Program-made: the position numbers and the translations under genes
Part shown: positions 1 through 4,561 of the stretch, in pieces
How positions within the stretch are numbered: position 1 is the first letter of the stretch
Layout of the letters: each line of letters starts with the position of its first letter
Virus record (IMG/VR): IMGVR_UViG_2698536571_000005
Origin: a virus
Lineage: Duplodnaviria; Heunggongvirae; Uroviricota; Caudoviricetes
Strand: one strand, 5' to 3'
DNA length: 4,650 nt
The notes under the pieces: model-generated
The model's input: only the letters and a program-made list of their open reading frames with translations
Told to the model about the DNA's origin: nothing
Database searches by the model: none

Positions 1-103
1 GGGACGGAAGTCGCTGTCGTTCTCAAAATCGGTGGAGCTGCATGACAAAGTCATCGGGCATTATCTGAACATAAAACACTATCAATAAGTTGGAGTCATT
101 ACC
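1..103. repeat. Left arm of a perfect 103-bp inverted repeat; partner is 4548-4650
   Basis: Hand comparison: reverse complement of 4548-4650 matches 1-103 at every base; identity stops at 104 (t) versus 4547 (g). The arm contains the stop codon and last ~26 codons of the gp47-like ORF. Confidence 0.9.
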
Positions 104-697
104 TGCGCCCCCCTGTGGAATGTAGTAATAACGTTCCATAACGCGGGCACGCCATATTTCCAGATTTTCAATATCTTCACCGTCTGTAATGGTGTCAGCG
201 TACCCTGTGGACGGCAGACCACTGACGGGTGTTCCCAGTTGCATGGCAATACCATCATCCGTATTCCCCGCCGATCCCGGTTCGTCTGCCACAACAGGCA
301 CCCGGAGAAGACCATCGGCTGCGGTCACCGTCGCCGTCGTGGTAAAGGTCACCTGATTATCACGCTGGATCTGCGTTCCCGCTGGCAATACCGGCGTCCC
401 CTCTACGCCATCCCAGCGCACAAATCCCCGGGCTGCCACCGCTTCTTTTCGCGGGCAGCGTTTGATTCTGGCGTGCCGGTACAGCCAGTCTTCATCACAC
501 ACGTCCGGTAACAGATTTCTGGCAAGATAATCGATATACCCGTACAACGTGTGTACGGCTGCAGCCTGTACACGGGCATACACTTCCGCATCCATACGAC
601 GAAGCAGCGTATCCTGCTCAAAGCGGGTTAATAAATCGCTCCGGATCATAGAAATAAGTTGCGGGAGGCCGGGGCGATAAAACTGACTGTCAGCCAT
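23..697 (-). CDS. Baseplate J-like protein (Mu gp47/W-like, P2 gpJ-like), probably truncated or chimeric at the C-terminus
   Basis: 224-aa ORF. The stretch ARGFVRWDG...LPAGTQIQ...PVVADEPGSAGN...YYYIPQGGAGNDS resembles the baseplate J family as I recall it. ATG at 697-695 has GGAG 9 nt upstream and overlaps the stop of the upstream gene by 8 nt. The last ~26 residues (GNDSNLLIVFYVQIMPDDFVMQLHRF) are encoded by the inverted repeat and do not look like the family. Confidence 0.6.
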   Translation of the reverse strand: MADSQFYRPGLPQLISMIRSDLLTRFEQDTLLRRMDAEVYARVQAAAVHTLYGYIDYLARNLLPDVCDEDWLYRHARIKRCPRKEAVAARGFVRWDGVEGTPVLPAGTQIQRDNQVTFTTTATVTAADGLLRVPVVADEPGSAGNTDDGIAMQLGTPVSGLPSTGYADTITDGEDIENLEIWRARVMERYYYIPQGGAGNDSNLLIVFYVQIMPDDFVMQLHRF

Positions 698-1100
698 TCA
701 GTTCACTCCAGATATCATCAAAAATAATGTTGTGAATATTGCCGTCACGCTGGTAAATGGTAATGGCAAGTGCCAGCGAGTCTGTCCCGGTCCGGACAGC
801 GTTAATATCAAGACGGGAAGCAACACCATCCTCCACCATCCACGCCAGCGCCTCACGGACATAATCTCTGGCAAGCTGCGGGGTTTTATTTGTCAGCTTG
901 CTGCGTCGCAACAGATACAAACGCGACCCCGTGCGATCATTCTGAACCGCAGGCCAGGTATCCCCCCACCATCCAAATATCCGTGGTGCATCATCACGCC
1001 CGGCACGCCGCCATGTAAAAAGCGAAATAATCACAGCACGCGTCAGAAGGTCGATCGAAGCCCCGGTCGACACGGGTCGCCCGTTAACATTAATCATCAT
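690..1100 (-). CDS. Phage GP46-family baseplate protein (Mu gp46-like, P2 gpW-like)
   Basis: 136-aa ORF; size and position between the gp45-like and gp47-like genes match Mu gene order. Translation checked by hand (MMINVNGRPVSTGASIDLLT). Start overlaps the gp45-like stop by 11 nt. Confidence 0.6.
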   Translation of the reverse strand: MMINVNGRPVSTGASIDLLTRAVIISLFTWRRAGRDDAPRIFGWWGDTWPAVQNDRTGSRLYLLRRSKLTNKTPQLARDYVREALAWMVEDGVASRLDINAVRTGTDSLALAITIYQRDGNIHNIIFDDIWSELNG

Positions 1101-1665
1101 GATTTTCAGCCCATCGGTTGATCCGGCGTGTCNNNNNNNNNNNNNNNNNNNNNNNNNNNNNNNNNNNNNNNNNNNNNNNNNNNNNNNNNNNNNNNNNNNN
1201 NNNNNNNNNNNNNNNNNNNNNNNNNNNNNNNNNNNNNNNNNNNNNNNNNNNNNNNNNNNNNNNNNNNNNNNNNNNNNNNNNNNNNNNNNNNNNNNNNNNN
1301 NNNNNNNNNNNNNNNNNNNNNNNNNNNNNNNNNNNNNNNNNNNNNNNNNNNNNNNNNNNNNNNNNNNNNNNNNNNNNNNNNNNNNNNNNNNNNNNNNNNN
1401 NNNNNNNNNNNNNNNNNNTCAGCCGGTAACGTCTGTCAGCCACGACCACAACCACACCATGAGAACGATCGCCCGCCGGAAATAAAGCAACGCCCTCAGC
1501 ACCGTTCTGTGCGGCAGATGTAAAACCATAAGGTTCAAGGTGCTCAACGTGTTGTTTCTGATCTCCGGCTATCATTTTCAACCCTACAGACTGACACTTT
1601 CTGGCGGAATCCACCGCCGTGATGACAGCCCGGGAAATCAGATTACGAAGAGAAAACCCGTTCAT
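1090..1665 (-). CDS. Baseplate spike/assembly protein (Mu gp45-like, P2 gpV-like); central part unknown because of the N run
   Basis: N-terminal 82 aa (MNGFSLRNLISRAVITAV...EHLEPYGFTSAAQNGAEGVALFPAGDRSHGVVVVVADRRYRL) resemble the gpV/gp45 family. Strong SD GAGGAGG (1673-1679 on the plus strand) lies 7 nt upstream of ATG 1665-1663. The 3' end and frame are not reliable: the gap is 286 nt, not a multiple of 3, so the ORF through it is an artefact of N-to-X translation. Confidence 0.55.
   Translation of the reverse strand: MNGFSLRNLISRAVITAVDSARKCQSVGLKMIAGDQKQHVEHLEPYGFTSAAQNGAEGVALFPAGDRSHGVVVVVADRRYRLXXXXXXXXXXXXXXXXXXXXXXXXXXXXXXXXXXXXXXXXXXXXXXXXXXXXXXXXXXXXXXXXXXXXXXXXXXXXXXXXXXXXXXXXXXXXXXXXTRRINRWAENHDD
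1133..1418. other. Assembly gap or masked region (286 consecutive N)
   Basis: Uninterrupted run of n from 1133 to 1418. Confidence 0.99.
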
Positions 1666-2731
1666 CAGAAATCCTCCTCAACATTTTTTTCTTCCTGGCG
1701 GTAACAGGCTCGGGGAGATAAGCATCTGCCGGGCCAACCCGTAATTCAGTCGTCGTGCCCCGGTCGTCCTGGTTATAGGTAACTTCTGCGATCACCAGTT
1801 CATCATTATCAAAATTATTCAGCGGGTCGAAAACGATGACAGATAACCCCGGACGCCATAACGCGCCACTGCCCTGCCGCCAGCCCTGAACCGTATATGT
1901 TGTCTCACGGGTAAGCGCAGCCCGTTGGCGCGCTTCAAATTCACAACGGGCCTTACAGGTTGCTGTCGTTGCTGTGCCTGACTGCTGAATCAACAAAGGG
2001 CGATAACGGGTCACGCCACTGTCCTGAATGGTCTGACGTATTGCGGCAATGGTGGCCTCACCAAAATCATCGTCGTTGCCCGGGCGCTGCCCACTGACCT
2101 GATATTCAGAAAACCGCTCTCTGATGCTTCTTTCCGTGTCACAGGAAAGAATATTCTCTCCCAGCACCAGCACCAGCACCAGCGCCGTCGCCGCTTTACC
2201 TGTTCCGGGTTTTCCCAGAACCAGTCGCCCGCATTCATCGTCATAAGCCAGCGTCTGAACCTGCCCCAGTAACCGGTTAAGACAATCGGCAACGGTTTCG
2301 CCGTGTTCCGGCTGGGCATCAATCACCGCTGTCTGCGGCACGCCAGCATCAACAACGGTGATGCCAAATGGCGCAGCCAGTTCACTGACTATTCTGAGCA
2401 GGTTTTTTCCGCTCTGCTGGAGTGGCAAAGCAGAGCAGTCAACCAGATCGGCTGTTTTGCTTCGCCCGACAATTCCCATGCTGACGCTGCTGGCGTCATA
2501 ACGAAGCGGTAGTGCCTCCACATATCCGGTGAGCACAGGCTCATCCCCGATAAGCACTTCAACCAGCTCACCATTTTTTATCCGGGGTTGATAATCCCGG
2601 CTTCCGGGCCAGCGGGTGGTAATGGCAACATTAAAATCCCGGGCAATACGGTTAATGCCCGCACTGATACGGACGGATGTCCAGCCGCCCCATTCGCGAC
2701 CGGAAACCCGAAGTAAAACGGTATCATTCAT
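1643..2731 (-). CDS. Phage tail/baseplate hub protein (Mu gp44/P-like, P2 gpD late control D family)
   Basis: 362-aa ORF; length and position fit Mu gp44. ATG at 2731-2729 overlaps the upstream TGA (2730-2728) as ATGA. Contains an in-frame hexanucleotide repeat coding ALVLVLVLG. Confidence 0.7.
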   Translation of the reverse strand: MNDTVLLRVSGREWGGWTSVRISAGINRIARDFNVAITTRWPGSRDYQPRIKNGELVEVLIGDEPVLTGYVEALPLRYDASSVSMGIVGRSKTADLVDCSALPLQQSGKNLLRIVSELAAPFGITVVDAGVPQTAVIDAQPEHGETVADCLNRLLGQVQTLAYDDECGRLVLGKPGTGKAATALVLVLVLGENILSCDTERSIRERFSEYQVSGQRPGNDDDFGEATIAAIRQTIQDSGVTRYRPLLIQQSGTATTATCKARCEFEARQRAALTRETTYTVQGWRQGSGALWRPGLSVIVFDPLNNFDNDELVIAEVTYNQDDRGTTTELRVGPADAYLPEPVTARKKKMLRRISDERVFSS

Positions 2732-4119: not shown

Positions 4120-4133
4120 ACTGTCTCCACTAT

Positions 4134-4157
4134 AAAAAAACCGCCAATTTCTGGCGG
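4134..4157 (-). terminator. Rho-independent terminator on the minus strand
   Basis: Perfect 6-bp stem ccgcca (4141-4146) / tggcgg (4152-4157) with 5-nt loop atttc. On the minus strand the hairpin is followed by a T7 run (plus-strand A run 4134-4140). Lies 9 nt after the stop of the 131-aa ORF and directly abuts the SD of the N-like gene. Confidence 0.6.
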
Positions 4158-4165
4158 CTTATATA

Positions 4166-4561
4166 TTAATCATCATTAATATCTTTCATATTCAATTTGC
4201 AATTTTCGTAGGTCACTCCCGACTCGCCATTAACATTAACTCCAGCTCTGATATTCCCGTTTTCTTTTACATCTACAAAAAACTGGCCTCTTGGCATCTT
4301 GAACGCAAATGTAAAACCAACAGTATCTGAATCAAAATCATCATCTTTATATATTGGGATCAAAAATGTCATCGTCGCTGGTGATGCATTGTTTGCAAAA
4401 TCAAATACACCTATACTTTTGCCGAATTCATAAGAAGCTTTTCTCAATATAATCGCACCGCTGGCAGAAGGGGATGGGCACGATATCCTCAGTTGTCTGA
4501 ATCCATCTGTATCCAAGTCAACGTCATTATCTGCAGATGTTTTAACGGGTAATGACTCCAA
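4166..4561 (-). CDS. Hypothetical protein in AT-rich DNA; no family recognised
   Basis: 396-nt ORF in DNA that is about 27% GC by hand count of 4161-4220, where stop codons are frequent, so an open frame of this length suggests real coding. Start is uncertain: the only in-frame start upstream of Met64 is TTG at 4561-4559, inside the right repeat, with no obvious SD; in-frame stops sit just upstream. Confidence 0.35.
   Translation of the reverse strand: MESLPVKTSADNDVDLDTDGFRQLRISCPSPSASGAIILRKASYEFGKSIGVFDFANNASPATMTFLIPIYKDDDFDSDTVGFTFAFKMPRGQFFVDVKENGNIRAGVNVNGESGVTYENCKLNMKDINDD

Follow-up and report, generated by a model that had tools for sequence, protein, structure and literature searches.

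The stretch of viral DNA filed as IMGVR_UViG_2698536571_000005, analysed here over its full 4,650 nucleotides (nt; hereafter the window), carries five Mu-type baseplate genes set between two ends of the insertion sequence (IS) IS1. Its substantial coding capacity lies on the minus strand throughout, where the order in 5'→3' direction is the remnant of an AT-rich open reading frame (ORF), a terminator, N/gp43, P/gp44, gp45, gp46 and the 5' part of gp47 (Table 1). Window proteins were assigned by Pfam profile search at gathering thresholds and by PHROGs. The families DNA_circ_N, GpP/gp44, Phage_Mu_Gp45, GP46 and Baseplate_J were found in this order on one strand, all above the Pfam gathering thresholds, and the PHROG tail categories concur with the Pfam assignments. 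The five baseplate genes are genuine and not a chance pattern. The same Pfam families occur in the same order in phage Mu, as N(gp43)-P(gp44)-Q(gp45)-V(gp46)-W(gp47); the likeness is at family level only. In simple contractile tails, these families make up the core of the baseplate, namely hub, spike and wedge. The profile searches bear out the gene identifications of a preliminary description of the window, which had been made from the sequence alone; it was equally right that an AT-rich ORF and a terminator precede N, that gp47 is cut by a repeat and that the middle of gp45 is masked.

Table 1. Features of the 4,650-nt window (positions count from its first letter; aa, amino acids).
Feature	Position	Strand	Evidence
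Terminal 103 bp of IS1, insB-distal end (GGTAATGACTCC... read inward), inserted in gp47 and continuing past the window	1..103		inverted repeat with 4548-4650
9-bp target-site duplication of the gp47 IS1, one copy (+ strand, TGCGCCCCC; gene strand, GGGGGCGCA)	104..112		same 9 bp at both IS1 ends in L003
gp47-like baseplate wedge (Baseplate_J), codons 1-198 of 360	104..697	-	PF04865 1.2e-24; PHROG baseplate protein / wedge subunit
gp46-like baseplate protein, intact, 136 aa	690..1100	-	PF07409 4.5e-33; phrog_180
gp45-like baseplate spike / assembly protein V, middle masked by Ns	1106..1665	-	PF06890 3.3e-27, unmasked N-terminus
P/gp44-like baseplate hub, 362 aa	1643..2731	-	four Pfam domains; phrog_177
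N/gp43-like 'DNA circularisation' baseplate hub protein, intact, 463 aa	2728..4119	-	PF07157 3e-36; phrog_184
Intrinsic-terminator-like hairpin, 10-bp stem then T7, between AT-rich ORF and N	4138..4160	-	identical sequence in L001
AT-rich accessory (moron-like) ORF, 3' 126 codons and stop of a 160-aa ORF	4166..4547	-	reconstruction against the 160-aa ORFs of L001 and L002
Terminal 103 bp of second IS1, which measures 768 bp in L003 and interrupts the AT-rich ORF in opposite orientation	4548..4650		inverted repeat

Genomic context was taken from ten closed or near-closed chromosomes of ~4.8 Mb that encode the exact N protein. Three of these genomes (L003, L006 and L011) are 100% identical to the window at positions 1-1132 and 1419-4650, IS1 ends included. 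A locus of the same family is carried by L009, which is CP022672, Shigella sonnei 866 (PMC6128377). By their chromosome size, IS content and locus surroundings, the genomes of this group are S. sonnei. Together, the 100%-identical closed genomes and CP022672 point to S. sonnei as the organism from which the window derives.

On these chromosomes the locus begins at its left with rluD, bamD, IS4, a fragment of a prohead protease (120 aa) and an IS3-family element. The genes for the tail sheath (498 aa), tube (118 aa), chaperone (111 aa) and tape measure (649 aa) follow, and then an IS1. Between this IS1 and a second copy lies the window, from the remnant of the AT-rich ORF through N, P, gp45 and gp46 to the 5' part of gp47. 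Past the second IS1 come the 3' part of gp47, gp48 (196 aa), a fibre gene, a fibre-assembly gene, a second fibre gene and a gene for a DUF4376 protein, beyond which ssrA (transfer-messenger RNA) and then smpB mark the right edge. One IS1 lies 178 bp from the end of the tape-measure gene, and the other is directly followed by the remainder of gp47, then gp48 and the fibre genes. The phage gene order is kept in all ten closed genomes, and gp47 is interrupted in every closed genome examined. With the two IS1 discounted, the 100%-identical genomes thus have the baseplate genes embedded in a tail cluster, the tape measure upstream and gp48 and fibre genes downstream. The preliminary description had seen an orphan baseplate module lacking tape-measure, sheath, tube and fibre genes, which is true of the window only.

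Both ends of the window are IS1. Positions 1-103 and 4548-4650 are 100% complementary and form a perfect inverted repeat. In L003 the complete elements at the two window ends measure 768 and 769 bp (769 bp for the copy in gp47), are 99.9% identical, lie in opposite orientation and have the ends GGTGATGCTGCC...GGAGTCATTACC; the insB-distal end of each faces the baseplate genes. They encode InsA/InsB (Pfam Zn_ribbon_InsA, HTH_Tnp_IS1 and DDE_Tnp_IS1). Everything expected of IS1 is therefore found here, i.e. a length of ~768 bp, terminal inverted repeats, insA/insB and a 9-bp target duplication at both copies. RefSeq annotates DNA matching the window ends as 'IS1-like element IS1A/IS1B family transposase' at tens of thousands of places in E. 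coli genomes, and a search of E. coli genomes with the whole window matched more than 116,000 places because the repeat at the window ends is ubiquitous.

Phage sequence in gp47 ends at position 104, after 198 codons. From there the frame runs 26 codons into IS1, down to position 23 (…GNDSNLLIVFYVQIMPDDFVMQLHRF*), and the resulting gp47-IS1 chimera of 224 aa is called Baseplate_J by gene callers; the exact chimera occurs in 226 blocks of a public assembly collection. Positions 23-103, included in the phage module (23-4561) as first delimited, are IS1 sequence. At the other end, an ORF of 131 aa with a TTG start at 4561 begins within IS1 and is spurious.

The two IS1 copies are flanked by separate 9-bp direct duplications, CGTTAAAAC for the copy in the accessory ORF and GGGGGCGCA for the copy in gp47. 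In L003, each IS1 was deleted in silico together with one copy of its duplication. The IS1-deleted sequence from sheath to fibre (L003 4387-15012, 10.6 kb) forms a single colinear block with prophages of two E. coli strains, FDAARGOS_944 (NZ_CP065613, here L001) and AST215 (NZ_AP043621, here L002), at 99.1% and 97.0% identity, respectively. The deletion restores a gp47 of 360 aa, identical at 359 of 360 positions to that of L001 and at 350 of 360 to that of φP27 (see below), and an accessory ORF of 160 aa. Separate duplications combined with colinearity to intact prophages rule out both a composite-transposon origin and a real dislocation of the baseplate genes. An origin of the repeats as an assembly artefact was also considered and is rejected, since closed long-read chromosomes contain the IS1 copies. 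The boundary of the window, or contig, inside IS1 is an artefact; the IS1 insertions themselves are genuine.

The closest sequenced phage is the Stx2e-converting phage φP27 (NC_003356 / AJ298298), with 96.5% nucleotide identity from N to gp47. Its genes L48-L52 are the counterpart of the baseplate genes of the window. As at the S. sonnei locus, the order in φP27 is sheath, tube, chaperone, tape measure, N, hub, gp45, gp46, gp47, gp48 and fibres, and the protein lengths are equal except for the chaperone (111 aa at the S. sonnei locus, 109 aa in φP27), P, gp46 and the IS1-split gp47. Near-identical and syntenic φP27-like tail genes are thus found both in the phage itself and in the 10.6-kb colinear block of the E. 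coli prophages. φP27 differs in being complete, with stx2e and the genes for lysis, terminase, portal and capsid, whereas the S. sonnei locus has the tail part only. It also lacks IS1 and the AT-rich accessory ORF, N following 15 nt after the tape-measure gene.

Even closer are the φP27-like prophages of E. coli AST215 and FDAARGOS_944, which match the whole unique part of the window at 97-99%, AT-rich ORF and terminator included. They occupy other chromosomal sites (tRNA-Ser, or near zinT) and have no IS1 at either insertion position of the window. The AST215 prophage is apparently complete. It has an antiterminator, transfer RNAs (tRNAs), holins, an endolysin, an HNH endonuclease, a P27-family small terminase, the large terminase, portal, HK97-type protease and capsid, connectors and a tail terminator; after these come sheath, tube, chaperone, tape measure, the 160-aa ORF, N, P, V, gp46, gp47, gp48 (YmfQ) and fibres. 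The S. sonnei locus, in contrast, is without these full head, lysis and regulatory modules. The lengths of sheath, tube, chaperone, tape measure and gp48 are equal between the two. The prophage of FDAARGOS_944 (L001 12000-36600), the closest relative at 99%, is itself decaying: copies of ISEc60 interrupt the sheath and portal genes, and frameshifts affect the terminase and Q genes. It adjoins a frameshifted ipaH effector gene, a neighbour that suggests an enteroinvasive E. coli (EIEC)/Shigella-like background.

A Mu-like transposable prophage was considered as the source and is rejected, the relatives being lambdoid with HK97-type heads. Judged by the gene sets of these relatives, 'Mu-like' is accurate only for the tail and baseplate proteins and misnames the element as a whole.

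Upstream of the sheath gene the S. sonnei locus has been rebuilt by IS elements. All that is left there is the prohead-protease fragment, flanked by the IS4 that adjoins bamD and by the IS3-family element; the latter replaces the capsid, connector, tail-terminator and DUF2635 genes of intact relatives. No lysis, regulatory, packaging or integrase genes were found within 10 kb of the locus. Of the five window genes, which the preliminary description had thought to look intact apart from the masked middle of gp45, N and gp46 are so, gp45 has its middle masked, and the remaining two are not, since gp47 is split at codon 198 and the C-terminus of P is frameshifted.

We therefore conclude, with a probability of roughly 93%, that the window is the central tail-cluster segment of a defective φP27-like prophage next to ssrA in S. 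sonnei, which IS1 has cut twice. The ancestor would have been a phage of φP27 type, with lambdoid layout, HK97-type head and Mu-type contractile tail. Two independent IS1 transpositions into the tail cluster would have followed, in opposite orientations, one into the accessory ORF between tape measure and N and the other at codon 198 of gp47. With IS elements upstream, gp47 split and P frameshifted, the element is a dead remnant. The decaying prophage that the preliminary description offered as one alternative is what the IS-bounded locus, the split gp47 and the frameshift in P support, and nothing was found in support of its other alternative, a hub/spike core kept for another purpose. It had further held that tape-measure and fibre genes directly adjoining the module in a complete Mu-like prophage would refute an orphan module and make the repeats an assembly artefact; these genes do directly adjoin, which in substance refutes the orphan reading, with the qualifications that the repeats are genuine IS1 and that the prophage at this locus is incomplete.

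In E. coli K-12, ~20 kb of DNA that includes essential genes separates bamD from ssrA. That the two face each other across the remnant (L003 1-4400 and 19488-21392) implies an IS-mediated, IS4-associated inversion, at whose other endpoint the half of the prophage with the head, lysis and regulatory genes may lie.

Several points weigh against this conclusion. Neither the IS1/gp47 junction nor the A7 allele of P (see below) has a match in a species-representative genome collection. The genomic context given for the window is that of the 100%-identical closed genomes and not that of the source isolate itself. An IS-mediated inversion, and not a deletion, could have taken the head, lysis and regulatory genes away from the locus. 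The mask in gp45 may not preserve length, or may hide a difference of 26 nt. Finally, that the tail genes are not expressed as a functional unit is something we infer from the loss of the late promoter and antiterminator and from the polarity of IS1 insertions.

Could the baseplate genes have a history of their own? A truly orphan hub/spike core of N, P, gp45 and gp46, held under selection for some non-phage purpose, might be read from the intact frames of N, gp46 and (in the identical genomes) gp45 and from the recurrence of the exact N protein in more than 3,000 assemblies. That recurrence, however, is due to the clonality and heavy sequencing of S. sonnei, as generally known, rather than to selection; the frameshifted C-terminus of P and the split gp47 do not fit such a core; and tape measure on one side and the 3' part of gp47, gp48 and fibres on the other adjoin across simple IS1 insertions. 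A consensus scan of the window found 3 promoter-like sites against 3.6 expected, none above chance, a count that is not evidence either way and that includes no obvious promoter. We regard an orphan core as very improbable. Least credible of all is that the IS1 pair and the DNA between them are an IS1 composite transposon that brought the baseplate genes. Two near-identical inverted IS1 copies do bracket 4.44 kb, but each has a separate 9-bp duplication where a composite transposon would have one common to the outer ends, in intact prophages the bracketed DNA and the sequence on either side of it form one exactly colinear stretch, and all ten closed genomes retain the phage gene order. Separate duplications and colinear inner DNA mean that the IS1 copies inserted separately into a pre-existing tail operon. 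A composite-transposon origin is refuted, and a future mobilisation or inversion of the segment is conceivable.

The survival of tail genes only at this locus also raises the idea that the remnant is, or was, a domesticated tailocin (R-type bacteriocin-like) of S. sonnei that IS1 inactivated recently. It would agree with the observation that, bar the two IS1 insertions and the frameshift in P, the compared tail ORFs are full length relative to functional relatives. Yet head genes are not all that is absent. Also missing are the tail-terminator, neck and DUF2635 genes that precede the sheath gene in L002 and φP27, and within 10 kb there is neither a lysis cassette nor a regulator; gp47 is interrupted in all closed genomes examined, with the gp47-IS1 fusion protein in the 226 blocks mentioned above; and the left boundary was made by IS elements, as random decay predicts. 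The locus thus lacks the gene set of an R-type tailocin, and we consider a tailocin, present or past, very unlikely. A similarly small chance is left to an ancestral tailocin beside ssrA that was knocked out by IS1, or to a continued transcription of the IS1-bracketed N-P-gp45-gp46 segment with some residual role, in which case transcription would start from IS1-associated or cryptic promoters.

The defective φP27-like prophage also accounts for how the orphan impression arose. Shigella chromosomes carry 229-348 IS insertions, with IS1 as the top contributor (PMC7373316). Because IS1 is so highly repeated in Shigella, short-read assemblies break at each copy. A piece of 4.44 kb is consequently emitted as a contig of ~4.6 kb that ends in IS1 on both sides, just as the window does, and its baseplate genes look orphaned. 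The assembly collection fits breakage at IS1: the exact 463-aa N protein occurs in 3,271 of its blocks, and the longest contig carrying N measures 2-5 kb in 3,132 of them and exceeds 1 Mb in 84. In line with an insertion specific to Shigella, 5,426 complete E. coli genomes all lack the IS1/gp47 junction.

IS-disrupted prophage remnants, involving IS1, IS2, IS4, IS600 and IS911, are known from Shigella, and the S. sonnei element is a typical instance (PMC7373316; PMC6128377). It shares with them that IS1, IS4 and an IS3-family element interrupt or bound it and that insertions with 9-bp duplications have created pseudogenes. The prophage regions of S. sonnei 866 show partial φP27 homology, and most of its prophages carry IS elements (PMC6128377). 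A literature search on P27, Shigella sonnei, prophage and IS1 combined returned nothing specific. The kind of object is already known, i.e. an IS-riddled φP27-like prophage remnant of S. sonnei, viewed here via a contig boundary, and it adds a further case to the well-documented IS-driven decay of prophages in this species. More generally, in IS-rich genomes such as those of Shigella a contig bounded by the same IS at both ends is uninformative about what lies beyond, and 'orphan' modules from IS-ended pieces should be treated as boundary artefacts until compared with closed genomes. The analysis yielded two mildly useful by-products, namely a hexamer repeat of the hub gene that varies among strains and, in intact φP27-like prophages, an accessory gene family that is lipoprotein-like and uncharacterised.

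N is identical at 462 of 463 positions to its counterpart in L001 and at 443 of 463 to that of φP27, and gp46 is identical to intact relatives at 128-132 of 137 positions. The four domains of P are GpP-like_1st, Gp44-like_2nd, NMB1110_3rd and GpP_4th (Pfam E-values about 1e-19 to 1e-22). P is longer in the window (362 aa) than in φP27, L001 and L002 (351 aa), because a hexamer has expanded and one A has been lost. The lost A belongs to a poly-A run that is A7 in the window (T7 on the + strand, 1684-1690) and A8 in φP27, L001 and L002. The A7 allele causes a -1 frameshift, by which the last 6 residues, NVEEDF, are replaced by 13 others (MLRRISDERVFSS); the frameshifted P overlaps gp45 by 23 nt, and the TGATG stop/start coupling is lost. 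A7 was found in every S. sonnei locus examined except for two draft-grade assemblies with A6, which is likely a homopolymer error.

The hexamer forms a tandem repeat at 2161-2183 (CCAGCA on the + strand, CTGGTG on the gene strand). Its in-frame expansion encodes an LV repeat that turns ALVLG into ALVLVLVLG. The window has 3 LV units and other closed S. sonnei genomes have 2-5; L001 has 1, and L002 and φP27 read ALVLG with one unit. The hexamer is thus a strain-variable variable-number tandem repeat (VNTR) within a pseudogenised operon, and it may correspond to a typing locus of multiple-locus VNTR analysis (MLVA).

In gp45, the run of Ns spans 1133-1418 and is 286 nt long; its counterpart in the 100%-identical genomes has 260 nt. 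In those genomes gp45 is intact (534 nt / 177 aa), with the real stop at 1106-1108. As the run exceeds its counterpart by 26 nt, reading frames across it are meaningless, and the 191-aa ORF at 1090..1665, for example, is an artefact.

The AT-rich accessory ORF has a GC content of 37%, as compared to 54.5% for the baseplate genes. The second IS1 cost it 34 codons at the 5' end, start codon and lipoprotein-like signal among them, and 4539-4547 is one copy of the 9-bp target duplication of that IS1. The accessory ORF in the window is a pseudogene. Full-length copies are found in L001 and L002 (24030-24512, minus strand), where the ORF and its terminator likewise stand between tape measure and N; the ORF ahead of N, which the preliminary description had read as a sign of a lost upstream neighbour, is thus the arrangement of intact E. 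coli prophages. At least 11 of the 30 E. coli matches listed contain the ORF, which φP27 lacks. Over its full length it matches phrog_5586, of unknown function, and sequence searches found no relative in Pfam, NCBIfam, PADLOC or PDB. A consensus scan found no sigma-70-like promoter upstream of an intact copy.

Being GC-distinct, present in some relatives only and equipped with its own terminator, the accessory ORF seems to behave like a moron. In lambdoid phages, Q-modified late transcription reads through such terminators. The N-terminus of the ORF, MIKPFLMTVAILTS|C (…AILTS|C), resembles a short lipoprotein signal, and the intact 160-aa lipoprotein-like product could be a candidate lysogenic-conversion or superinfection-exclusion factor in intact phages. 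In S. sonnei 866 (L009, 8859-9987) the IS1 of the accessory ORF is replaced by an IS5-family element encoding a 326-aa DDE_Tnp_1 transposase; the remnant of the ORF is gone, and the match to the window ends at 4133. The arrangement would indicate a secondary IS event at the spot of the accessory-ORF IS1.

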